Of a stretch of DNA of 64,000 nt, positions 1,425-63,496 are shown one piece after another. The DNA lies in IMG/VR virus record IMGVR_UViG_3300042282_000085; one strand, written 5' to 3'. The translations under genes and the position numbers were made by a program. The first letter of the stretch is position 1. The number at the start of each line of letters is the position of its first letter. The notes under the pieces were generated by a model. It worked only from the letters and a program-made list of their open reading frames with translations, ran no database searches and was not told the DNA's origin. The stretch comes from a virus (Duplodnaviria; Caudoviricetes).

Positions 1425-3633
1425 CCTTTTGTCCACTGTAGGCGCTACACTACAGCCGGTGTGCTCAGACACCCGCCCCTGCTTTCACAGGGGAGCAGAC
1501 CATATCACCTTCCTTCCACAGTGTGGTTAGGAAGCCTCCCGTTTGGCAGGCGCTTGCCCGCTACTCCGCGCTACCGGATGGCCGTTGAACTCACTCCGTG
1601 TTACCCACAGGTAATGTAGGAGCTTCGCTGCGTCGGTTGCCCAATCTCTAAGGGTTTTTACCATACCTCTCACTTCCATTACTGGGAGAGGGATTACCCT
1701 ACCTTTCGGTGGGTAAGGGGTACCTTAGAGCTGTAAAGGGGTTTCCCGCAGTTAGAGAGGATCCCTTAAACATCTCTGCCTAAGGGGACTTTGTTTAACA
1801 AGTTATTAATTTCAGTGATCAGGCTACGGCAGTGCCGGTGACATTAGCCTCTTCACTGAAGACCCACTTAGTAGCCTTAACGGTGAGTCCATTTACCCTA
1901 TATACGCCGTCGTGCTGGGACAGTGCGTCGCGCAATCGCTTTAGCTCCATGTTGACCGCAGCGGCTACATCCTCTAACCGTAGATACAGTGTACGATTAC
2001 CACTGTCATCGGCAGTCACCGAGTACGCATATGTAATGCTGTATGCGTCCCGGTACTTGATTAACTCTTCGATAGTCGGCCAGGGCCTATAATCGTTCTG
2101 TACCCTAACTAACCACCTTGACCTTACCAGCCTGCTGTTAATTCTTGCTGCCGTTATGCTGGGCCTCTTGGCCCCACATATGGTTGAGGCCTGACTCGTA
2201 TCCAGGTTGCAGAACTCTTGCCCAGTTACGTAGTCCTTAACCTTAAGGGTTAAAGGTTTACCGGTCCTAGCCTTTGTAATGTACTCTAGGTCTATTTCCG
2301 GGAAGGGATACTTCTCCAACTCGTCCGTGTATCTGAATACATACCCTTTAAGGTCACAATCCCTTCGTTTCCTGGCATTTGTAGCTATCTGATATTTAGA
2401 TATCTTAAGACGCTCTGCGGCCTCATTGACGCTATCGAAATCATGTCGCCGCTGTGTCTTAACAGAAAGTGCAACTACCGGCCGAGCTCTACCCCTAGTG
2501 TATGTGGATAGCTCCTCCAAGGAGGGCCACTCCCTATCGTCTAGAAGCTTTTTAACTAGGTACCCGTTAATTGGGTAGAAGTTATCCCGTCTTAGGGAGG
2601 CTGAAAGAGTTCCAGGTTGCACACCAATTGCCGCGCCCAGCGCTATGCAGTTTGGTCGGACGATCTCTGTGCCGTTGGAGAGGTCTAACGCCACAACGTC
2701 ATTTGAGCATTTGACCGTGGCGTCGGCTATCTCGCTCACCGTAGGTAGGGCGTCTTTGTTGCCAATGAAGCTAAAGGCATGTCCGTTAATGGCGTGCTTT
2801 CTACCATAACGGCAAATGTCCCTCACAGTGGCCGGCAACACGTTATGTGCCCTCGCAGCGCTTGCGACGCTTGGGTATATGGTAATCGAACCACTACATG
2901 CGTTTATGGCAACGACCTCGATGCCAAGATGCGAGGTACTTTCGACCCTATCGACCCTAGCCAACTCCGTCTTTGTGAGTTTCTCTGAAAGGTATCTGAA
3001 AACGTAGCGTCCAAACCTAATTTTAGGTTCGCCATTTACCCACCTGTGGATGTTCTCTTGCCCAACGCCGTTGTCCCTAGCGGCGGCGTTTAAGGTTACC
3101 CATTCACGGGTACTGCCGTCCACGAGATCGTGCCGTATGATAGCCCTATTGTCATCCCTTAAGCCATTTTGATACGCATGGTGGGAGTTGTATCCCCAGG
3201 TACACCATTCTAGGTTAAATGGACTGTTGTTAAATTTATCGCCATCCTTGTGATTTACAACTACATGCGTGGAACACTCCCTTTTTAGGAAGGTCAAAGC
3301 CACAAGTCTATGGACCGCAACGCTCTTCTTCCGACCGGCTTTTTCATCAAACGTCTGAACAGTGGAGTATCCCCTCTTACCATTGGAATTACACTTTCTA
3401 CCCAACGGTTCCCCGTTAATGGCAGATATCGCCTCCCCGACGCCGTTAACTAGCACATCAGGATGGTTAGGTACAACGTAGTATCCAGGGAATTCTTTAG
3501 ACTCCTCGGGAGTTCTAAACCCTCTAGATACTTCATTGGATAGGTTTTCCATTATCTTACACCTCATTTCATGTCACTGACCGTCGATATAAGATAACGG
3601 CACAACGTATTAATTAACTTGTTAAACTAAAAA
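1425..3633 (-). mobile_element. Group I intron (2209 nt) carrying an HNH homing endonuclease gene in its 5' (P1 loop) region
   Basis: Junctions GAU|UUUUUAG and AAAAGG|UUC. A perfect 13-bp inverted repeat (1793-1805 / 3615-3627) loops out the ORF. Core motifs CUAACUGCGGGAAAC, UUCAACGGCCA and GAUAUGGUCU lie between 1497 and 1760. Confidence 0.9.
1819..3567 (-). CDS. Intron-encoded HNH homing endonuclease with repeated NUMOD1/IENR1-like DNA-binding modules
   Basis: VHRLVALTF...VNHKDGDKFNNSPFNLEWCT HNH motif, followed by several F/Y-x-S-x2-AA helix-turn-helix repeats. Confidence 0.92.
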   Translation of the reverse strand: MRCKIMENLSNEVSRGFRTPEESKEFPGYYVVPNHPDVLVNGVGEAISAINGEPLGRKCNSNGKRGYSTVQTFDEKAGRKKSVAVHRLVALTFLKRECSTHVVVNHKDGDKFNNSPFNLEWCTWGYNSHHAYQNGLRDDNRAIIRHDLVDGSTREWVTLNAAARDNGVGQENIHRWVNGEPKIRFGRYVFRYLSEKLTKTELARVDRVESTSHLGIEVVAINACSGSITIYPSVASAARAHNVLPATVRDICRYGRKHAINGHAFSFIGNKDALPTVSEIADATVKCSNDVVALDLSNGTEIVRPNCIALGAAIGVQPGTLSASLRRDNFYPINGYLVKKLLDDREWPSLEELSTYTRGRARPVVALSVKTQRRHDFDSVNEAAERLKISKYQIATNARKRRDCDLKGYVFRYTDELEKYPFPEIDLEYITKARTGKPLTLKVKDYVTGQEFCNLDTSQASTICGAKRPSITAARINSRLVRSRWLVRVQNDYRPWPTIEELIKYRDAYSITYAYSVTADDSGNRTLYLRLEDVAAAVNMELKRLRDALSQHDGVYRVNGLTVKATKWVFSEEANVTGTAVA

Positions 3634-5193: not shown

Positions 5194-7149
5194 TTACTGA
5201 CCGTAGGGCTTGTTGAATACGGGGTTAATGTAGCTACCGCGCATCTGCTCACCCATCGGGCCGGTCTGGCCGTACGGAGACTGGTAGAAACCAGCCGCGT
5301 TGTAGGTGCCACCGAAGTTCGGGTCAATACCCTGACGCTGCATGCCCTGATCGTAGGCGACCATGTCATCGGAGATGATACGGACGTCATTGTTGATCAG
5401 TGCCTGTACCAGACAGGGAATGAAGTTCGGTGAGAAGTACACGCGAGTGGCCATGCCAGTGATGTTGCAGTCACCGGCAACGGACATCAGGCAGCGACGA
5501 CGGTCTGACAGGTTAATGTTGTTAGCAATGCCCGGAGTCATTGCAGCGGTAGCCTGAGCTACGAACTGCAGGTCCTTCGGAGACGCAGACAGCATGGTCA
5601 GATAGTCGATGGTACGCAGGTCACGAGCGCGACCATCCTTATCGGTGTAGGTACCGAGGTGAACGGTCACAGTGTCGTGGTGCATCACTGCCGCCTTAGC
5701 GTTGCCGTTGTTAGCCTGTGCCCAGACCTGAGAGAAGGCACCACCGGTCAACGCATCACATTCAGCGATGATGTCATCATTGGCGCCAGAGCGCGGGTTC
5801 TGTGCTGCCGCAATGAATACGGACTGCACCCACTCCAGACGACCACCCTGCTCCACATCCAGTGCAACCGCTACGTTCTGCGTACACCACTTAGTGGCCA
5901 TGCTGAACGGAGTTTCCTTGCCTTCTTCCGGCGCCTTGTTAAGGGATACCGATTCAACCGGCACCTTACCCAACGCTTCCGGACCACGGCCGTAGGGATC
6001 GTATTCCAGACCCAACATGCCAATGGACTGCTTCTGTACCTTCTGACCCGGGTAGGTTTCGAAGACACGGACCCAACCGTGATTAGCGGTCATGGCCAGA
6101 GTTGCAACCAGACCCATCAGCTGGGTACGCAGATCCTCAATGGAGCGACCAGAGTTCGCCAGACCGGCGACTTCAGTCAGTACCACGACCGGCATGTAAC
6201 CAGGCTTGGGTACCTGAGGCTGCTGCAGCTGAGCGTACGGGCTAGTCTGCTGCTGGGTAATAATGTTGAAATCCACATAACCAGACACTTCAGCCAGGTT
6301 ATGCTCCTGAGTACCAGTATGAACCTGGTACATGTCACCCTGCTTCTGATTAACGCGGGTGAGTTTGATGGAGGTATTGAAGTCGGCTGCAATTGGTTGA
6401 CCAATCCGGTTCAGGCGACATTCGCCCGGAGTGACTGTAGTGCGCTGACGCACTGCAACCTGTGGGTTGCGCAGGTGCTTCGCGTTAACACGTCCCACAC
6501 CCTGACCACCTGCGGCATCAATGATGGCCAGATGTGCAGAGTCAAAGTACACTCGAGTCACCTCTGCTGAGGAGAGATCCGCTGCCTTGGGCACCACACA
6601 GTGACCGATATGAACCACTTCGGCCGGATTCACTTTGTACTGGTTAGCCACGAAGGTGGATACCACTTCACGCAGCTTCTCATCGAAACAGCGGGTTGTG
6701 GGGCGATCAGTGATCACGTCCTTCTGACCAGAATAATCGCGGATGGTTTCCACGATCGGTTCCAGCTTAGAGGACATCATGCCCTCAATCAAGAGGTCAT
6801 ATACGACAACCTGCTTGGTGGCGCTGGATACTGCACACAGTGCCAGCACCGGCAAGTAGAGTTGCTGGCTGGAAACGGAAACCACCTCCAACTTCAACAT
6901 GTTAGAAATCTCTGGCAGCGCTGCCAGACGTTTCATTTCTTCACTGAAGGCGGCGAAGCCTTCAGTATCCATGCCACCACTCAGGGTGGCTACACCCAGA
7001 CCCTCGAACGGGTCCGCGCCGTCATACTCGTTGTAACGAGTATTATTGGTATACCCCTGCTGTGGTTGTGGCTGCTGAGTCTGCTGTGCAGCCTGCGGCT
7101 GTGCAGTCTGGTCAGCAGTTTTGTTCGGGTTGTTGTCATTCACACGCAT
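5194..7149 (-). CDS. chmA: Chimallin-like phage nuclear shell protein (phiKZ gp54-like)
   Basis: 651 aa with a Gln-rich flexible N-terminus and low-complexity C-terminus. It lies between the gp52-like and gp55-like genes (conserved synteny), has an early promoter upstream and strongly biased codon usage. No alignment was run. Confidence 0.75.
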   Translation of the reverse strand: MRVNDNNPNKTADQTAQPQAAQQTQQPQPQQGYTNNTRYNEYDGADPFEGLGVATLSGGMDTEGFAAFSEEMKRLAALPEISNMLKLEVVSVSSQQLYLPVLALCAVSSATKQVVVYDLLIEGMMSSKLEPIVETIRDYSGQKDVITDRPTTRCFDEKLREVVSTFVANQYKVNPAEVVHIGHCVVPKAADLSSAEVTRVYFDSAHLAIIDAAGGQGVGRVNAKHLRNPQVAVRQRTTVTPGECRLNRIGQPIAADFNTSIKLTRVNQKQGDMYQVHTGTQEHNLAEVSGYVDFNIITQQQTSPYAQLQQPQVPKPGYMPVVVLTEVAGLANSGRSIEDLRTQLMGLVATLAMTANHGWVRVFETYPGQKVQKQSIGMLGLEYDPYGRGPEALGKVPVESVSLNKAPEEGKETPFSMATKWCTQNVAVALDVEQGGRLEWVQSVFIAAAQNPRSGANDDIIAECDALTGGAFSQVWAQANNGNAKAAVMHHDTVTVHLGTYTDKDGRARDLRTIDYLTMLSASPKDLQFVAQATAAMTPGIANNINLSDRRRCLMSVAGDCNITGMATRVYFSPNFIPCLVQALINNDVRIISDDMVAYDQGMQRQGIDPNFGGTYNAAGFYQSPYGQTGPMGEQMRGSYINPVFNKPYGQ

Positions 7150-7226: not shown

Positions 7227-7236
7227 GTAATATAGG
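7227..7236 (-). promoter_or_regulatory. Early (virion RNAP) promoter motif CCTATATTAC upstream of chmA
   Basis: Contains the phiKZ early consensus TATATTAC. The same 10-mer recurs at 17636, 38130 and 53158, with a variant at 25944, always intergenic on the minus strand. Confidence 0.75.
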
Positions 7237-14506: not shown

Positions 14507-15262
14507 TTAGAACACCATACCACTGTCGTCCGTAGTACGGTCACCCTTATCCATCACCTGATGAACACCCACTGGGGTAGCGGTCGCCAGTGATTCCCGT
14601 ACGCTGTCGTATCCACGGATTGCCATTTCAACACCCCCCATGATTTGTCCAATGCGACTAGCTGAGGTTGCGAAATGGAAGTTAGGCAGGTCCTTAGCAC
14701 CCCAGACCTTACCATCGTAGTAACCGACACAGCTATACGGCTGACCCAAGGATGGAATTTCATCGCCATCGCTATTGAGCAGTGAGGCTGTCGAGATAAC
14801 AGCACCGTCCAAGGCCGTAATATCGGTACCCTGCCATTCGGGTTTACCACCAAATGTCTGTTTAAAGGGTAGTACCTCAATCAGCTGAGACGGGATATCG
14901 GCGTGGTTACGACTATGATCCAACCAGTTCACCAGGTCAGTGTGGTCCAGTTCATGGTGACTGCCACAGAACAAGAGACCCAGCTGACGTACAATCTCTT
15001 CGACACGGTTATCGATATCCGGACGAGAGCCCAGGTATCCATCGTTAGCGTGATTATCGCTAGCGGCGTTTTCCTGATAGATCATCATAATGGGACGATT
15101 GTTGGTAGCCTTACCCATGGCCATAGACTGTAGCGTTTCCAGTGTACGCAGCGTATTCTTGGCCTCAATACCTGAATAGGTACTGCCCACCACCAGCGTA
15201 ATGACGTTTGCACCACGTCGCAACAGTTCTGCCGTTACAAGGGGGCCCACCACAGAACCACT
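14507..15262 (-). CDS. phuZ: PhuZ phage tubulin, exon 2
   Basis: Starts AGT GGT TCT GTG GTG GGC CCC (SGSVVGP) right after the intron-terminal G. Contains NTLRTLETL, ELDHTDLVNW and the acidic tail TDDSGMVF typical of PhuZ. Confidence 0.9.
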   Translation of the reverse strand, partial: SGSVVGPLVTAELLRRGANVITLVVGSTYSGIEAKNTLRTLETLQSMAMGKATNNRPIMMIYQENAASDNHANDGYLGSRPDIDNRVEEIVRQLGLLFCGSHHELDHTDLVNWLDHSRNHADIPSQLIEVLPFKQTFGGKPEWQGTDITALDGAVISTASLLNSDGDEIPSLGQPYSCVGYYDGKVWGAKDLPNFHFATSASRIGQIMGGVEMAIRGYDSVRESLATATPVGVHQVMDKGDRTTDDSGMVF

Positions 15263-16914
15263 CGTTATCTTCAACACTGTTCGTTAATCAGTGTCCGCAA
15301 CATTACTTGCAGCTCCCACCTTTCAATGGGAGACGAGACTATATCAATATCCTAATTTTGAATAGGTTTATTTAAGCGCACTATGTGAATGTTTGGGTCA
15401 TTCAGTTGCTTATAAACATATTCTAGACTGAAGTATTTACGTTTATCTGCTATACCAAGCTCATCTAGAAGAGCCTCGTCGCCCTGGACGAGTTTAGTGG
15501 TACTTCCATTGGTTACCCTATACATTCGCATAGGGGCCTTACATTTAAAGTAACTGGAGAGTATGGTCTCCTCAGTAAAGGGATACCACGCATACCTATG
15601 AAGGCTAGATCTTAAACCCAGCCCGTGTATGAGTGTAGTTCCCTTACGCCCTTTACATTCGCCAAGTTTAGTCGAAACGTCGCGCTGATCGTAGTTTCCA
15701 CCGTAATGCTCATTAACAAATTTCGCCACAGCTTCTGTACTGTAAAACTTTGTAGTCGTCTTTGTGTAATAGTCGTAGAGCTCGTAGTACTGTTTTTTGG
15801 CCCGATATGGTACCAACTGATAGCTCTCCCTAATTGCCATGGCCTCTTCTTTACATACGTCCGTTGCAGTTGGGAGATCATCCTCGTTGAGTGCAACGTA
15901 GTATCCGGCAATATATGCGCACTTTCTAATCTTAAATATATTAGAAAGTGATCGGATACCGGTAAAGTAAGCAGCTATAAAGTAACTAGGGTATACTAGG
16001 CGCTCTCCGTTTACACAATCCAATACAAATACGTTGGTGCCGAATTTAGCACTGTTCGAGGAACAAAACAGTGTCTGCTCGTCTTCTAATTTAACTATCC
16101 ATCGACCGAGCAAGGGTGCGTCTTTAGATCGACGTATCAACGGTATAAGGTTATTGGCATGTATGTTAATGTAATTAGCAGCACTCTTGATTGAGTTGAA
16201 CGTTAATGTCTGTCCGGACTCTAGGTCTTCCACTAACGTTCTATTCGCATTCGCATTTAATCCGTTGGCAACCGCATGTATGTGGTTCTTATGTGCCGTT
16301 ACCCACTCTAGGTTGTCGGCGCGGGGATTTAGTTTATTACCATCAATATGGTTGACCTGTAGATTGGCGTCCCAACCCGGTACAAACTCTTCTGCCACCA
16401 ATCGATGGATGGTACTATATCTTTTGCCGCCGTCATCGTTGAGTATGGATATTTTCAAATACCCGTATTTATCGATGCCCTGCTTCAAGAGTTTGCCAGT
16501 TCTAACATTTCTAACTCGGCCAGTGTCACTGACTTCATAATTAGAACACCCTGTTATTTTCTTCCACTTTTCCAATAATGCGTTCTCCATATTCAGGTCG
16601 CCCAATCGACCTTTGGTTTACACTATTCAGTCATTATTAGGATAGTCCCCGTTTCGATTTAAGGATCAATGTCCACCCACTTGGGCCCTACACGCTGGTC
16701 AATGCGTTAGTCGTTGGACGTTCCCCCTAGCCTGTCTCCCGACAGTCCTTAGGGGCTTCGCTGCTGATTGTCCAATTGCAGATATTTTCAAGCATTCACG
16801 TTTGCCTTTTCAGACTACGTTGTAGCTACCTGCACTTAAGGAGTTTCCAGCAATTAAGGGACGTGTCACCATACAGTTACCTGTACGGCGGGCTTATGTC
16901 ACAACGTGACGTTA
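15263..16914 (-). mobile_element. Group I intron (1652 nt) in phuZ carrying a NUMOD4-HNH endonuclease gene
   Basis: Junctions GGU|UAAC and AACG|AGU restore GG-SGS. Core motifs UUAAUUGCUGGAAAC, CCAACGACUAA (~16707-16717) and GAUAUAGUCU (~15336-15345). The ORF lies between the R and S elements (P8 region). Confidence 0.92.
15352..16605 (-). CDS. Intron-encoded NUMOD4-HNH homing endonuclease
   Basis: EKWKKI...YEVSDTGRVR (NUMOD4) and IHRLVA...VNHIDGNKLNPRADNLEWVT (HNH). Confidence 0.92.
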   Translation of the reverse strand: MGDLNMENALLEKWKKITGCSNYEVSDTGRVRNVRTGKLLKQGIDKYGYLKISILNDDGGKRYSTIHRLVAEEFVPGWDANLQVNHIDGNKLNPRADNLEWVTAHKNHIHAVANGLNANANRTLVEDLESGQTLTFNSIKSAANYINIHANNLIPLIRRSKDAPLLGRWIVKLEDEQTLFCSSNSAKFGTNVFVLDCVNGERLVYPSYFIAAYFTGIRSLSNIFKIRKCAYIAGYYVALNEDDLPTATDVCKEEAMAIRESYQLVPYRAKKQYYELYDYYTKTTTKFYSTEAVAKFVNEHYGGNYDQRDVSTKLGECKGRKGTTLIHGLGLRSSLHRYAWYPFTEETILSSYFKCKAPMRMYRVTNGSTTKLVQGDEALLDELGIADKRKYFSLEYVYKQLNDPNIHIVRLNKPIQN

Positions 16915-17635: not shown

Positions 17636-17645
17636 GTAATATAGG
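17636..17645 (-). promoter_or_regulatory. Early promoter motif CCTATATTAC upstream of the phuZ operon
   Basis: Exact repeat of the motif at 7227. Confidence 0.75.
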
Positions 17646-25980: not shown

Positions 25981-26004
25981 CCATTACCCCATAGTGGGTA
26001 ATGG
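25981..26004 (-). terminator. Terminator hairpin after the DGR RT gene
   Basis: CCATTACCC-catagt-GGGTAATGG followed by AATTTATGC on the minus strand. Confidence 0.7.
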
Positions 26005-27138
26005 CTATATTTTTATTAAACGGGTGTAGTTTGAATCGGTGGTAAGGATGCCGGGTATGCAATGTCTGTCCGCTAAACGTCTGCGGTTATTAAAGGAAGC
26101 GGTGTGTACCATATGCCCTAAGTAACTATTAATAGTAGACTGTATCCGATCACACTCTGTCCAAAAATCACTATAGTCGGCTACAATTGCACTAGCGGTA
26201 GCTAACGTACTGTTGCGTGTATATCGACGCCACGGCTTATGTACGTAACCTACAAAATTAATGCCCTGTGAGGCAGGCGCGATAGTACACTTATCCGGAT
26301 GTACGGTTAGCTCAAGGTGTTGCTTCAGGTATTGGATAATGGCACCCATCCATTCCTCCAACGCCAAGCGGTCGGTTGAGAAAATAACCGCATCGTCTAC
26401 ATAACGAACATACGCCTTTACACCTAAAACATGTTTTACAAATTTATCAAAGTCATCTAGATACACGTTACTTGCAACTTGACTCAACAGATTTCCGATC
26501 GGTAACCCATAGTTATACGGTACGTTCCAAAGTGACTTGTGCTTAGGTACGAGCTCAAACTGGCTATTCGGTTTTATAATCGGATTTACCGTAGGGTCGT
26601 TCCACAGTACCCGGTAAAGTAGATTAGATGTGAGGGACGATGAAGGTTCACCCACATGTCGTTCAAACTTATCCCACAGTATGTACTTGTTTATAGATAC
26701 GAAAAAGTTCTTTATATCGAACTGTAGAACGAAGCAGTCAGTTGCGTAATTTCGGGTTACCCTGCGATGCAGCGCGGTGACCCTATTCGAGGCGGCGAGC
26801 GTACCCCTACCCTTAATACAGCTGTAGGTATCCTCAATAAAGCGCTCCTCTAAGTATCGGCCAATATCGGCGTAAATAAGGTGATGAACGATACGATCCC
26901 TAAACTGCGCCGCCCATATCTCCCGGGGCTTAGGGTGTGTGACCACAAAGACCTCGGATCGACCTATCTCATAATTGCCGTTGTTCACCTCGTCTAATAG
27001 AGTTAAAAGATTGTCCTCGAACCTTAACTCAAATTCAAGGGCTGAACGCTTGTTGCGCTTCAAACGCCTACAGTCTAGATAGGCATAAAGTATATCTTCG
27101 TACGTGTACCGGTCCCGAAGGACTATCGGTGTAGACAC
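26005..27138 (-). CDS. DGR reverse transcriptase
   Basis: 377 aa; KPREIWAAQFRDRIVHH, DIKNFF, GLPIGNLLSQ (the SQ signature of DGR RTs), YVRYVDD and GINFVGY. No maturase or endonuclease domain. Confidence 0.96.
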   Translation of the reverse strand: MSTPIVLRDRYTYEDILYAYLDCRRLKRNKRSALEFELRFEDNLLTLLDEVNNGNYEIGRSEVFVVTHPKPREIWAAQFRDRIVHHLIYADIGRYLEERFIEDTYSCIKGRGTLAASNRVTALHRRVTRNYATDCFVLQFDIKNFFVSINKYILWDKFERHVGEPSSSLTSNLLYRVLWNDPTVNPIIKPNSQFELVPKHKSLWNVPYNYGLPIGNLLSQVASNVYLDDFDKFVKHVLGVKAYVRYVDDAVIFSTDRLALEEWMGAIIQYLKQHLELTVHPDKCTIAPASQGINFVGYVHKPWRRYTRNSTLATASAIVADYSDFWTECDRIQSTINSYLGHMVHTASFNNRRRLADRHCIPGILTTDSNYTRLIKI

Positions 27139-27146
27139 TTGCTTTA

Positions 27147-27271
27147 TCTCCGGAAAGGCACTACCCAGTTACTGTTGTTCTTGTTGTTGTTGTTCCAATT
27201 CCCATTGCCAAAGTTCAGGTTCCAGGCGTTGTTGGAATTGTTCTCGGTAGAGGACCAGACGTTCGTCGTGG
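27147..27271 (-). ncRNA. DGR template repeat (TR), 125 bp
   Basis: Aligns without gaps to 28075-28199 with 13 mismatches, all A in the TR sense strand; 16 AAY codons in the VR frame. Confidence 0.97.
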
Positions 27272-27430
27272 TGTTAGACCATAGACTCGAATCACACCGA
27301 CATGTCGCCACCTCGGTTAGACGCTTTTAGCATTTTACCTCATGGGTGCTATGGTCCGAGATAATGGACGTCTACGCCGACCTTGGTCTAAGCGCACTCT
27401 GTCTGTGTCCCCGATAGCCCATTCGTATGT

Positions 27431-27871
27431 TTAAATTCTAGCGTCGGTTACAATTGCACCAACCCACTGTTTTTGTTGAACAGTACTTGCAACGAGTCTT
27501 TGAACCTGCTTGCCAAAGCCTATCTGCCCGCGCTCTCCAGTAGAGACCGCACGCACATCATAGGCGATACGGTAGGATAAGAGCAGTGCTTGGATGTGGT
27601 GGTTAATATCCTTTACTAGCTGCAGCTTTCTATTTCTATCGTTAACCTCCTCATACGCTAAAAAGATTGAAAGAGTCAGACTGGTAGCCTGATCGATTAA
27701 CTTTGTACCTAAGGTAAATTTATACTGCTTAGGCATTCGCGATACTAAAATGTGAGTGTCCTTTAATATGCTCCTTGCTAGCTGATATAGTTTTGTACGC
27801 TCGTGTGGTTGAATTTGATGCTCTAGATTTGTCATACAGAATACAGTGGTCCGGTAAATAAAAAAAAACAC
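27431..27871 (-). CDS. avd: Accessory variability determinant (Avd, four-helix bundle); start probably MTNLE at 27835
   Basis: Small basic helical protein with the pattern LYQLA...RMPKQYKFTLGTKL...KQWV, located between target and TR. Confidence 0.88.
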   Translation of the reverse strand: MFFFIYRTTVFCMTNLEHQIQPHERTKLYQLARSILKDTHILVSRMPKQYKFTLGTKLIDQATSLTLSIFLAYEEVNDRNRKLQLVKDINHHIQALLLSYRIAYDVRAVSTGERGQIGFGKQVQRLVASTVQQKQWVGAIVTDARI

Positions 27872-27900
27872 CCTATAACCGCGCGTGTGCGGTTATAGGG
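27871..27900 (-). terminator. Terminator between the DGR target gene and avd
   Basis: CCCTATAACCGC/GCGGTTATAGGG stem followed by TGTTTTTTTT on the minus strand. Confidence 0.75.
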
Positions 27901-28052
27901 TATATACAATTTTGGACCCAGTCCCTACAAAGGGCCTGGGTAGCCTGTAGGGCTTTTAAATGTATTCAAAGTAGTAAGGGCAGCCCTACAAAGGGCAAGC
28001 CCTAAAAGCAGTGTCCTTTAAAGGACACTCACAGGGACAGAGTATTAAAAGT

Positions 28053-28076
28053 GAATACCCGTTTAAACGGGTATTC
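28053..28076. repeat. Perfect 24-bp palindrome at the VR 3' end (candidate DGR targeting hairpin/cruciform)
   Basis: GAATACCCGTTTAAACGGGTATTC spans the target stop codon and is absent after TR. Confidence 0.8.
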
Positions 28077-29400
28077 TCCGGAAAGGCACTACCCAGTTAC
28101 TGACGTACTTGCGGTTGTTGCGCCAATTCCCATTGCCAAAGCCCAGGGTCCAGGCGTTGTAGGAATTGTACTCGGTAGAGGACCAGACGTACGTCGTGGG
28201 TAGGTTACCGGTACCATCCGCTGCATCAATCTGAGCTCGATTATTGTAGATCAATTGCAGATCCTTCGCATTGGGTAAATCATAGCCCAGACTACGGCAG
28301 TACTCTGCAGCGGGAGACCCAATACTACCCTGTCCATCGTTAATGGAGTTATAAGTAGGACTCGTCAGTACGTCAGTATTGTATTCTGATGAGTTAGGGT
28401 CAGTCGGGGTAGTAGTAGTACCGCTACCAGTCGTCCAGTTTGGAAGACTGGTATCGGTACCGTAGAGTCCCCACATTTTAGTCGTACGCTGTGAAGCCGG
28501 GGCTACTACCAGCCAATCGCCTCCTTCCTGACCGAAAACGATACCGCCGTCCGGTAGTGTAGTACCGACCCCGATCAGTGTTTCGGTTTTAAATCCAATG
28601 TATGCACTCCAAGCCGACCAATCGCCGGTACTGTCCTTATACCGCACACGGGCGTAATATTGGGTACCCTCTGCTAGGTTACTACTCGGCTGCCAGCTAC
28701 TCACAGCACCCAATTCGCCACTGTCTACCAGTCCAGTCGTAAAGCCGGTGTTGGTTGCTAATTGAAACTGGGTGCCACTATGTGTCTCATTGTTCTCAAT
28801 TGCAAAGGCAGAGGCACTCAGAGTAGGTCGCAGTACTACATCGGTAGAGCCATTTGTAGGGCCTGTCACAGATGGCGTACTGGGTGCAATCGACGTGGTT
28901 GTGAAGGTGGTTAGGGGCGAGGTAGCTGTTCCGCCGGTACTGCCTTCATAAATAACCTCTACATAGACAGTGGTAGACGCTGCAAATGCATAAAACCCTT
29001 CAACGTCAAAGGCTGTCAATGCAGTGGTGGTGCGCCCACTGGTAAACAGTAGATTGGTTTTGTTAGCATCTCCATAGAAATTCCAGATAGATGCAACGTG
29101 GGTATCCTGGGTGCCATCGGCCAGTACCCCATTAAAACTGGAGGCAGTAATGATGGGACGAATACTTACCCCGGTTGCACCGTCCAAAGGAGAAATAATG
29201 GTGGGACGTGCAATGCCTTCGAAAGATACGTCCATTGACATAACGACCCCACCTGGAGTAACACCGTCACAGATATGGAGCGAAGGTACGCCGGTACGCA
29301 GGTCAATAATCGGTTCACCCGGGGTCCCTAGATATTGTTCAATCGCATTGGACGTAAACCGCTTCCAGAGCCACGGCTCTCGCATGATTTTTGTAGCCAT
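28063..29400 (-). CDS. DGR target protein: Mtd-like N-terminus, Ig/Fn3-like domains, C-terminal C-type-lectin-fold variable domain; probable receptor-binding virion protein
   Basis: GEPIIDL...HICDGVTPGG resembles the Mtd N-terminal domain; YYARVRYKD...WSAWS is Fn3-like; AAEYC...LPNAKDL...VWSSTE...NAW...VVPFRR is CLec/DUF1566-like. Confidence 0.88.
   Translation of the reverse strand: MATKIMREPWLWKRFTSNAIEQYLGTPGEPIIDLRTGVPSLHICDGVTPGGVVMSMDVSFEGIARPTIISPLDGATGVSIRPIITASSFNGVLADGTQDTHVASIWNFYGDANKTNLLFTSGRTTTALTAFDVEGFYAFAASTTVYVEVIYEGSTGGTATSPLTTFTTTSIAPSTPSVTGPTNGSTDVVLRPTLSASAFAIENNETHSGTQFQLATNTGFTTGLVDSGELGAVSSWQPSSNLAEGTQYYARVRYKDSTGDWSAWSAYIGFKTETLIGVGTTLPDGGIVFGQEGGDWLVVAPASQRTTKMWGLYGTDTSLPNWTTGSGTTTTPTDPNSSEYNTDVLTSPTYNSINDGQGSIGSPAAEYCRSLGYDLPNAKDLQLIYNNRAQIDAADGTGNLPTTYVWSSTEYNSYNAWTLGFGNGNWRNNRKYVSNWVVPFRRIPV
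28075..28199 (-). repeat. DGR variable repeat (VR)
   Basis: 3' end of the target gene; nine TR AAC codons appear here as TAC x4, ACC, GGC, CGC x2 and GTC. Confidence 0.97.
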
Positions 29401-29543: not shown

Positions 29544-29628
29544 TGGTGCGGAATGGGAGACTCGAACTCCCACAGCTTGCGCCACTGGATCCTAAATCCA
29601 GCGTGTCTACCAATTCCACCAATTCCGC
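29544..29628 (-). tRNA. trnL: tRNA-Leu (anticodon TAG), 85 nt, CCA encoded
   Basis: Acceptor GCGGAAT/ATTCCGC-ACCA, D-loop GGAATTGGTAGAC, anticodon arm CTGGA-TTTAGGA-TCCAG, long variable arm, GTTCGAG T-loop. Confidence 0.95.
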
Positions 29629-29973: not shown

Positions 29974-30058
29974 TGGTACCCGGAGCGGGACTCGAACCCG
30001 CACACCATAAGGCAGGTGGACTTAAAACACCAATGTCTACCAATTCCATCATCCGGGT
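29974..30058 (-). tRNA. trnL: tRNA-Leu (anticodon TAA), 85 nt, CCA encoded
   Basis: Acceptor ACCCGGA/TCCGGGT-ACCA, anticodon arm GGTGT-TTTAAGT-CCACC (one U-C mismatch), GGTTCGAGTCC T-arm. Confidence 0.92.
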
Positions 30059-38129: not shown

Positions 38130-38139
38130 GTAATATAGG
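38130..38139 (-). promoter_or_regulatory. Early promoter motif CCTATATTAC for the orn/AAA/NUDIX operon
   Basis: Exact copy of the motif in a divergent intergenic region. Confidence 0.72.
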
Positions 38140-53157: not shown

Positions 53158-53167
53158 GTAATATAGG
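53158..53167 (-). promoter_or_regulatory. Early promoter motif CCTATATTAC
   Basis: Exact copy of the motif 60 bp upstream of the start at 53098. Confidence 0.75.
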
Positions 53168-61883: not shown

Positions 61884-63496
61884 CCTTCTGTCCACTACAG
61901 TCGCGACTCTGTAGCCGGTGTGCTCAGACACCCGCCCTGGGCTTTCCCCAGGGAGCAGACTATATCTTCGCCCTTACTCTTAAGGACGGACGCCGTTTGG
62001 AGCCACCACTGACTTGTGGCCCTACACCGAAGCAACTCGGTTAGTCGTTGAACTCATCCCTTAGCCATAGCCTTAGGGACTTCGCTGCGTCGGTTACCCC
62101 ACACGTTAACCTTTTTACCGTATCGAAGTGGTTAGCTTCGCCCCCATGGGGTGTAATATACACCGGTCACTGTTTCCAGCATGGGTTGGTAGTTAACGCT
62201 CAAAGGGCTTTCCCGCAATTAGACGTCGTACCCAGTACCTTCTGTTACTGGGGCGCACTAAAGTTCTTTAAAGTAATATCCGTAATATTCCACATTTGGA
62301 TGCTTAAGCCCACGACGTACATCATTGTAACTGATGCCTAGCTCCCTAACACAGTCACCCATACACGCAAAGTATCTCTGCTTCCCAGTATCCACGGCAG
62401 TCACCAGAAATGGTCGACCTCGCATCCGCTTAGCCCAATCTACGAAGGGGTCGTCTACAGTGCGCCATGGGTTAGGGTCAGACTTTCGTTTAACCAGAGC
62501 GTAGCGGTCACCAAGTTTAAAAACTGGCTGCTTGTCACCTTTGGATAAGTGTGTTGTCATCGTACCAGAAGTCACCTCTAACGCCTCAGCGGCGGCATTC
62601 TGACTCGAGTACTCCACTACTTCACCCGTGCATAGCCATTTTACTAGCACTTCATTGCCATGGTATACCGGATGTTCGCCTCTACTCACTGCAAGCTTAA
62701 CCTCACCGACTTTAGCTTTCCGCCAACTCTCCCTCTCATAAATGCCGAGGTGTGCAGAGACGTCTACCCATCCAACAAATTCACGCTCTCGCCTGAACTG
62801 AAGGCCATCTTTAAATAAAAGCTCTAGTGGCGCAGCTAAGCGTTGCTGGATGGTGAAAACAGAAAGACCTGTTGCAGCGGCAGCGTCAACGACTTTATTG
62901 AACCGCCCCTCTTCACCTGTTCTTAGGTTTCTCCAGAGTACAGCCGTTGTAGGCTTCTTACCTAAGTCGGCAACCTCAACAAGGGTACCGTTGTGGTTCC
63001 AAGGGTTCGTTTTTCTGACACCTCTAGCCATTGTACTGGGGTGAATGCCAATCGCTTTGGACGCTGAGACTCTAGTGGGGTATATCTTTACAGTGCCGTC
63101 GGGGAACGTTACCTTTGTTTCCTGGCCATGGGGAGTTAAACCGGTGTCAATGGCATGTTGTCGGTTCTCAGATCCACTACACCATTCTAAATTTGTGTAG
63201 TGGTTATTTGACTTCACGCCATCAATGTGGTTAACTTGTGTCTTGGTAGTAGGATCAGGATTGTCCACAAATGCCAGCGCGACTAATTTGTGAACTTTAA
63301 TCCCCGAAACTGACTCGTATCCACGTGACGTTACTGGGGTTCTAAACTTTCCCCTAGCCACGTCGTAGACCCTGCCATCCGGATAAATGCGGAAATTTGG
63401 ATATTCTTTTAAGACTTTAAATTCGGTTTCCATTGTCCATGACTCATGTTGTTAATACATACCATACACAGTCATAGTGACAATTTAACCTATCGT
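61884..63496 (-). mobile_element. Group I intron (1613 nt) in the vRNAP beta gene with an HNH gene in the P1 loop
   Basis: Junctions CGCGU|ACG and AAGG|AAAC restore DPKRV-NLGSVQQS. IGS GUGCGC (62253-62258) pairs with exon GCGCGU. Core motifs CUAAUUGCGGGAAAG, UUCAACGACUAA and AAGAUAUAGUCU. Confidence 0.92.
62258..63433 (-). CDS. Intron-encoded HNH homing endonuclease
   Basis: VHKLVALAFV...VNHIDGVKSNNHYTNLEWCS plus NUMOD1-like repeats. Confidence 0.92.
   Translation of the reverse strand: METEFKVLKEYPNFRIYPDGRVYDVARGKFRTPVTSRGYESVSGIKVHKLVALAFVDNPDPTTKTQVNHIDGVKSNNHYTNLEWCSGSENRQHAIDTGLTPHGQETKVTFPDGTVKIYPTRVSASKAIGIHPSTMARGVRKTNPWNHNGTLVEVADLGKKPTTAVLWRNLRTGEEGRFNKVVDAAAATGLSVFTIQQRLAAPLELLFKDGLQFRREREFVGWVDVSAHLGIYERESWRKAKVGEVKLAVSRGEHPVYHGNEVLVKWLCTGEVVEYSSQNAAAEALEVTSGTMTTHLSKGDKQPVFKLGDRYALVKRKSDPNPWRTVDDPFVDWAKRMRGRPFLVTAVDTGKQRYFACMGDCVRELGISYNDVRRGLKHPNVEYYGYYFKEL

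Follow-up and report, generated by a model that had tools for sequence, protein, structure and literature searches.

Evidence for a complete BPP-1-type diversity-generating retroelement in a chimallin-encoding, phiKZ-like jumbo phage

Studies of diversity-generating retroelements (DGRs) have dealt with temperate phages and with bacteria, in which the template RNA, the enzyme and the target DNA share one compartment. In the reconstituted DGR of Bordetella phage BPP-1, efficiency varies with the direction in which the target is replicated, and the process is inhibited by ExoI (PMC12875486). DGRs are frequent in lysogenic gut phages, and the first-pass annotation of the DNA described here regarded phage DGRs as known mainly from temperate phages; DGRs have also been described in crAss-like phages, which are not known to be temperate. 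In 224 jumbo phages, a survey reported no FGS (lectin-fold) domains of the kind diversified elsewhere by error-prone reverse transcriptases (RTs) (PMC7824862), and the RT of Staphylococcus jumbo phages is explicitly not a DGR. In full-text searches of the literature on jumbo phages, phiKZ, chimallin and the phage nucleus, no description of a DGR was found, in line with the first-pass annotation, to which no description of a compartmentalised DGR was known. Here, we describe a DGR cassette at positions 26005–29400 of a 64,000-nt stretch of DNA (hereafter, the window) from the phage record IMGVR_UViG_3300042282_000085. The mechanism is well known, and what is new is the context of a chimallin-encoding jumbo phage. 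We consider it highly probable that the cassette is a complete BPP-1-type DGR built into a chimallin-encoding, phiKZ-like jumbo phage.

The layout of the open reading frames (ORFs) places the cassette on the minus strand in the order target, avd, template repeat (TR) and RT, as had been annotated. The target gene (28063–29400) is an ORF of 445 aa, avd (27431–27835) encodes 134 aa counted from its ATG, and the RT gene (26005–27138) encodes 377 aa from a GTG start. The presence of avd was upheld, whereas its start was not: the mechanical ORF opens at a GTG (27871), and the likely start is the ATG at 27835. The TR (27147–27271) contains 42 adenines and, in the reading frame of the variable repeat (VR), 16 AAY codons, which a recount resolved into 13 AAC and 3 AAT codons. 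The VR (28075–28199) makes up the final 42 codons of the target ahead of an IPV-stop. A repeat finder and an ungapped comparison aligned the two copies, which lie 928 nt apart, over 125 nt without gaps.

TR and VR differ at 13 positions, and the TR base is an adenine at every one of them (13/13; hypergeometric P = 1.7e-7 for a TR with 42 A in 125 nt). Relative to the TR, the VR carries nine altered AAC codons. The gapless pair and its adenine-only mismatches were thus reproduced at the coordinates given in the first-pass annotation, and the nine codon changes and the peptides quoted there were both correct, as was the total of 16 AAY codons. No further VR copy was found in the window besides that at 28075–28199. 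The cassette is a complete, standard DGR of the BPP-1 type with canonical parts; as had been proposed, the RT, Avd, the target domain and the VR end all agree on this point.

For the RT, matches were obtained to Pfam RVT_1 (1e-17) and PHROG 1423 (2.4e-90), and the best match in the Protein Data Bank (PDB) was 8ub7, the DGR RT of BPP-1 (4.3e-30). Compared directly with Brt, the protein is 30% identical (E 3e-36). The motifs IGNLLSQ and YVDD, earlier described as intact, were both located, and they conform to the pattern of the DGR clade, [I/L]GxxxSQ with YxDD. The GTG start lies 8 nt past the end of the TR, and a GGAG within the TR end is the ribosome-binding site. In eight related loci that were compared (RT identity 40–92%), the TR likewise abuts the RT start, and every one of them has an adenine-type TR/VR pair. 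Because the same layout recurs in these eight loci, the short TR-RT gap is a trait of the RT clade, not a peculiarity of the window phage.

For Avd, the sequence is very divergent. A word-based search returned its own cluster only, phmmer and profile searches against the PDB gave nothing significant, and BLASTP against the Avd of Burkholderia phage Magia detected no similarity. In three profile libraries (NCBIfam, PHROGs and Pfam), Avd models were the sole matches for the product, namely DivGenRetAVD (6e-7), PHROG 3206 "Avd protein of DGR" (1.4e-7) and bAvd (4e-4), with scores that are all under the curated cut-offs. A full HMMER scan with the protein yielded 38 relatives; among 29 aligned sequences, comprising the query and remote homologues, bAvd was matched by 14, at best with 6.9e-16, and a fusion to an RT domain occurs in one. 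AlphaFold2 predicts a four-helix bundle (pLDDT 93), to which Foldseek assigned a probability of 1.00 with the BPP-1 Avd 4dwl and the Avd chains of 8ub7 (TM 0.79–0.82). The predicted identity of the protein as Avd rests on the profile matches, the remote homologues and the modelled fold.

For the target, a short N-terminal segment is followed by an FN3/Ig-like stalk region and a C-terminal Lcl_C/DUF1566 lectin-type domain, which bears the VR and which we take to have a C-type-lectin fold. The Pfam matches were Ig_Rha78A_N (7.6e-7) and, weakly, Lcl_C (formerly DUF1566; 3.5e-4). Lcl_C is precomputed on many homologues of the target and PF18454 is present on some, and the N-terminal 80 residues of the target had no Pfam match. 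The AlphaFold2 model is confident from about residue 240 (pLDDT 85–98 across residues 290–445, >85 for most), and residues 135–239 fall below a pLDDT of 50. In VIA-align, the C-terminal domain was aligned with that of Legionella Lcl (8q4e; Z 12.6, rmsd 2.3, 117/131 residues, 26% identity), and it also aligns to a Bacteroides fimbrial protein. The FN3 alignments reached a Z of ~10 over the model range ~61–275, which takes in the low-confidence residues 135–239.

The search of the whole target with Foldseek was dominated by FN3 repeats, and Mtd (1yu2) appeared at rank 31 with a TM of 0.2. In addition, BLASTP against Mtd was non-significant, both for the lectin part (E 0.16) and for an N-terminal G-x-x-GE...DG-x-T-x-GG-like stretch (E 1.6), and Pfam Mtd_N did not match the target even at E 10. 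Of the earlier description of the target as an Mtd-like adhesin, the layout therefore stands, but membership in the Mtd family is not supported, since the BLASTP match is non-significant and the variable domain is of the Lcl_C/DUF1566 type. The target is most likely an FN3-stalked, receptor-binding fibre of the virion.

The carrier was assessed by a check of Chimalliviridae core genes inside the window. A chimallin homologue (5194–7149, minus strand) matches Pfam Chimallin_Phikzvirus (PF25677) over its full length (3.7e-19; 68.8 bits against a cut-off of 27), PHROG 4795 "nuclear shell protein" (5e-56) and, in the PDB, phiPA3 PhuN (1.4e-10) and chimallin 7sqt (7e-4). PhuZ is encoded by the ORF at 14507–15277 (2.6e-28), which matches profile positions 102–323 only, that is, the C-terminal two-thirds of the tubulin profile. 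The window also contains two multisubunit RNA polymerase (RNAP) beta genes (in pieces), a DNA polymerase and a ribonucleotide reductase, together with the virion and packaging genes for a terminase, a tail sheath, a tube, a gp28-like vertex protein and an S80 prohead protease, as well as DUF7193. The phiKZ-like context that had been claimed was borne out by chimallin, PhuZ, the RNAP pieces and the phiKZ virion proteins, all within the same 64 kb. The phiKZ early-promoter core TATATTAC is found at 7227–7234, 78 nt upstream of chimallin. On the basis of its genes, we infer that the carrier phage builds a closed nucleus.

The continuity of the assembly across the cassette borders, on which this context depends, was evaluated against an independent IMG/VR assembly, IMGVR_UViG_3300042255_000023 (hereafter, the sister; 195.5 kb, estimated 71% complete). 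The sister is 82–92% identical to the window across the reductase gene, the cassette and the genes on its far side, and it is collinear with window positions 36–56 kb at 88–94% identity. It carries a TR identical to that of the window and one RT. The expected position of chimallin lies just past the end of the sister contig, and no match to an integrase was found in its 195 kb. A chimeric assembly, with the DGR of a smaller phage misjoined to the contig of a jumbo phage, would account for the GC content of 0.45 in 26–28 kb as compared with ~0.49–0.50 around it, and for the RT relatives that sit in smaller phages. However, the sister shows the same junctions on both sides and remains collinear 20 kb further, and four recorded contigs encode the target protein, so that we find a chimera scarcely credible.

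The orthologous VRs of the window and the sister carry 13 and 15 changes relative to the TR, respectively, all at TR adenines, and the other 83 positions are unchanged. The differences between these two VRs are confined to TR-adenine positions, whereas the surrounding gene is ~85–90% identical. For the sister target, three alleles (P0003, P0041 and P0042) are identical over residues 1–389 and differ at eight positions, seven at AAC codons and one at an ACC codon, all of which are adenine-templated. Among 17 alleles of three paralogous targets, all the changed residues are reachable by A-to-N changes of the TR codons in 12; the other five have one exception each, and in three of the five this is the same G-to-S change. 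Such a pattern is what repeated mutagenic retrohoming leaves behind, and it shows that the DGR is active in the lineage. Adenine-restricted variation of the VR, which had been proposed as a check, was thereby seen through comparison of alleles. Present activity in the strain of the window itself would follow from that of the lineage.

Recombination among paralogous lectin tips, rather than reverse transcription, might be the main source of VR diversity. One target protein, P0002, combines the N-terminal 300 residues of the window target with the last 45 residues, including the VR, of P0048, and the same G-to-S change occurs in several VRs. Such recombination, however, cannot restrict the differences to template adenines, and in alleles that share 389 identical residues the changes are scattered over AAC codons. 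We therefore judge this explanation very improbable. P0002 itself (459 aa, on a 7.8-kb contig) is either a recombinant between paralogous targets, P0048 being the paralogue, or an assembly chimera.

The 3' end of the VR, CTGGGTAGTGCCTTTCCGGAGA (28075–28096, minus strand; 22 nt), is invariant and resembles the initiation-of-mutagenic-homing (IMH) site, with its TR counterpart at 27147–27168. Its three adenines are unchanged in the VR of the window and in the three clean VRs of the sister, whereas the adenine immediately upstream is changed. The homology between TR and VR terminates at ...CCGGAGA. A perfect hairpin with a 10-bp stem and a 4-nt loop (28053–28076, minus strand) abuts the VR; its first two bases are the last two of the VR, and the target stop codon lies within it. 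The 101-nt stretch that holds this hairpin has a DNA fold z of -5.3, and a terminator scan also picks the hairpin. Conversely, no hairpin abuts the end of the TR. The VR hairpin is a candidate hairpin or cruciform for target recognition.

In the sister, one TR is accompanied by ten VR-like copies. Three of them, the orthologue and two copies at 82–84 kb, are clean, with 0–2 non-adenine mismatches, an intact end and an abutting hairpin. The other seven, at positions 65, 104936, 106117, 106774, 108330, 108968 and 109408, of which six cluster within 5 kb, carry 4–23 non-adenine mismatches; none of the seven has an abutting hairpin, and the 3' end is altered in six of the seven, with CCGGAGA retained in the copy at 106774. 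The abutting hairpin is thus restricted to VRs with 0–2 non-A mismatches. The seven copies that lack the hairpin look decayed and are probably rewritten rarely or never, and their state fits the known hairpin requirement in BPP-1.

Because the sister combines a single RT and a single TR with ten VR-like copies, the DGR is a multi-target system, not a one-target cassette. For two paralogous targets (P0044 and P0014), the longest contig on record is 155,597 bp, the same as for the target of the window, suggesting that the three share one contig. A further homologue of the target (P0017) sits on a 340-kb contig. In a scan of metagenomes with the VR-end pattern, a 12.7-kb contig (L019; CEGF01001846.1) was found to carry this repeat family in two VR-like copies, beside homologues of window genes; its nucleotide identity to window positions 34.5–37 kb is 75–79%. 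Since this distant relative carries two VR-like copies, the DGR-bearing lineage is broader than the two close genomes.

The longest perfect run between the two phages is a block of 304 nt (27028–27331, minus strand; 100% identical), which consists of 60 nt upstream of the TR, the TR itself and 119 nt downstream, corresponding to the first 37 codons of the RT; its surroundings are ~85–90% identical between the two phages. This block is a candidate for the DGR RNA, including an equivalent of the spacer. Its folding revealed no significant structure (z -0.68), and the region 3' of the TR, aligned in eight relatives, showed coding conservation only, with no spacer or priming structure. The comparison of the window with the sister is mosaic. 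The 5' two-thirds of the RT gene are 97–100% identical and the 3' third (26005–26440) is 67–85% identical, and avd and the target are ~85–90% identical. Such mosaic conservation suggests, at the level of sequence, either a recent exchange of the segment with the TR and the RT 5' part or a strong constraint on the DGR RNA.

The RTs closest to that of the window (53–60% identity) are on IMG/VR phage contigs of 24–94 kb, one of which is a complete 94-kb genome, and neither a chimallin nor a phiKZ-type sheath was matched in the IMG/VR contigs with these RTs. The next-closest RTs (44%) are in Burkholderia, Pseudomonas and Shewanella phages of 42–57 kb. For isolate-phage records with an RT match, ~75 of 113 were listed, and among the matches listed none exceeds 112 kb. 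The simplest reading is that the cassette and the lectin tip were horizontally acquired by a chimallivirus.

Several observations weigh against the reading of a functioning DGR in a nucleus-forming phage. The VR allele of the window (P0001) is identical on all four contigs that bear it. The target adjoins the ribonucleotide reductase, an endolysin-like gene and tRNA genes and does not lie within a tail module. The chimallin is only 22–26% identical to those of studied isolates. Finally, RT and Avd have no extension or added domain as compared with their homologues from chimallin-less phages.

The single VR allele on the four contigs of the window strain would be expected if the cassette were a recently acquired and now silent passenger, the VR pattern being a fossil, possibly from a previous host phage. 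The closest RT relatives in chimallin-less phages of 83–94 kb, which suggest horizontal acquisition, and the absence of a canonical early promoter motif near the cassette, where no copy of TATATTAC occurs, point in the same direction. By contrast, the RT, avd, TR, IMH-like end and hairpin are all intact, in the sister, whose TR is identical, the differences among three alleles are limited to adenine-templated codons, and the non-adenine positions of the VR are 100% identical to those of the TR despite the diverged surrounding gene. We regard a silent passenger as rather unlikely, and favour a DGR that still diversifies its targets.

The distance of the chimallin from characterised ones could also mean that the homologue forms no sealed shell, or that the DNA is transiently outside, in which case the DGR would work without a compartment problem. 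This appears quite improbable in view of the full-length Pfam match well above the cut-off and the presence of PhuZ and a two-RNAP system. In addition, studied chimalliviruses keep their genomes shielded at every stage, export mRNA and import proteins selectively via surface residues (PMC12908238). The missing extension in RT and Avd carries no weight for or against import, since the signal recognised is a surface patch. Because the chimallin is 22–26% identical to those of isolates and a megablast of 8 kb against isolate phages gave no nucleotide match, the carrier represents a new, uncultured branch of the phiKZ-like jumbo phages. A pattern search for the chimallin in IMG/VR returned no relatives, and a search of bacterial genomes with the RT returned relatives of ≤39% identity only and no clue to the host.

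In our proposed mechanism, the steps shown here are the anatomy, the signature and the variation, and the enzymology is borrowed from BPP-1. The avd-TR-RT unit would be transcribed, and RT-Avd would copy the TR RNA to cDNA, placing random bases opposite template adenines. The cDNA would then take the place of the VR, in which the target gene ends 3'. Homing to the VR would be steered by the common invariant 22-nt end and by the abutting DNA hairpin that the TR lacks. As a consequence, up to 25 codons (16 of them AAY) could be re-randomised at the tip of the lectin-type domain, and the same TR would serve additional VRs elsewhere in the genome.

If, as expected from chimallivirus biology, the target DNA replicates only inside the shell, and if the cDNA integrates at replicating target DNA, RT and Avd, or the cDNA, would have to enter the phage nucleus. 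This is a sound inference, based on the shielding of chimallivirus genomes and on the dependence of BPP-1 retrohoming on replication direction. In the simplest model, RT and Avd would be imported and act on the TR RNA inside the nucleus; alternatively, a ribonucleoprotein or cDNA made in the cytoplasm would be imported. A fuller proposal is that the RT system works inside the phage nucleus, by either route, and rewrites several fibre genes during lytic replication, so that the burst would carry diversified tips at several loci; the shell may in addition exclude host factors that curb retrohoming, such as ExoI. We consider this proposal about evenly balanced between right and wrong.

Here, the target DNA is expected behind a protein shell that admits selected proteins only. 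The locus thus offers a natural test case for whether an RT or a ribonucleoprotein is an import cargo of the phage nucleus, and for the site at which cDNA is synthesised and integrated. It would also mean that programmed variation of host range, at several fibre genes, is open to a large phage that appears to be virulent; this bears on the ecology of jumbo phages and on their use as programmable phages.

Further features accompany the cassette and the carrier. Between the target and avd, a terminator-like hairpin with a 15-pair stem is followed by T9 (27868–27903, minus strand), and a hairpin right after the RT stop (25981–26004) reads as a terminator on both strands. Directly upstream of the target, on the same strand, are two tRNA-Leu genes (29544–29628 and 29974–30058; anticodons TAG and TAA, respectively). 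HNH endonuclease genes are found at 1819–3567, 15352–16605 and 62258–63433. Exact copies of the promoter core occur five times, all on the minus strand (7227–7234, 17636–17643, 38130–38137, 53158–53165 and 62153–62160), a non-significant count that 14 of 100 shuffles reach.

Compared with the Chimalliviridae (phiKZ, 201phi2-1, PhiPA3, Goslar and RAY), the carrier shares chimallin, PhuZ and split multisubunit RNAP genes, as well as the gp28-like vertex protein, the S80 protease, the sheath, the tube and TATATTAC upstream of chimallin. It differs in the cassette itself, as a DGR or DGR-type RT is unreported for the family in the searched literature. With the DGRs of the 83–94 kb IMG/VR phages, the locus has in common that the TR abuts the RT start and that TR and VR differ at adenines only, and, with these and with the Burkholderia, Pseudomonas and Shewanella phage DGRs, that the targets have a lectin fold. 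For Burkholderia phage Magia, the RT is 44% identical, a tyrosine integrase is encoded and the Avd is not detectably similar by BLASTP.

The DGR of BPP-1 (mtd-avd-TR-spacer-brt) resembles the present one in its gene order and in its adenine-specific differences between TR and VR. In both, Avd is a four-helix bundle, as predicted here, the VR lies at the extreme C-terminus of a receptor-binding-type protein, and the invariant end of the VR is directly followed by a hairpin; Brt, as noted above, is 30% identical. Conversely, BPP-1 is a 42-kb temperate phage, whereas the carrier here is a chimallin-encoding jumbo phage, and the spacer between TR and RT is 144 nt in BPP-1 as opposed to 8 nt here. 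In addition, there are several VRs per TR here, and the target has no significant similarity to Mtd, its variable domain being of the Lcl_C/DUF1566 type. In the number of targets, the closest parallel is the DGR of Treponema denticola, in which, as reportedly described by Le Coq and Ghosh in 2011, one TR serves several variable proteins. The two systems share one TR and one RT with several dispersed lectin-fold targets, and they differ in that the present one is viral, with ten VR-like copies in the sister, three of which have an intact end and hairpin.

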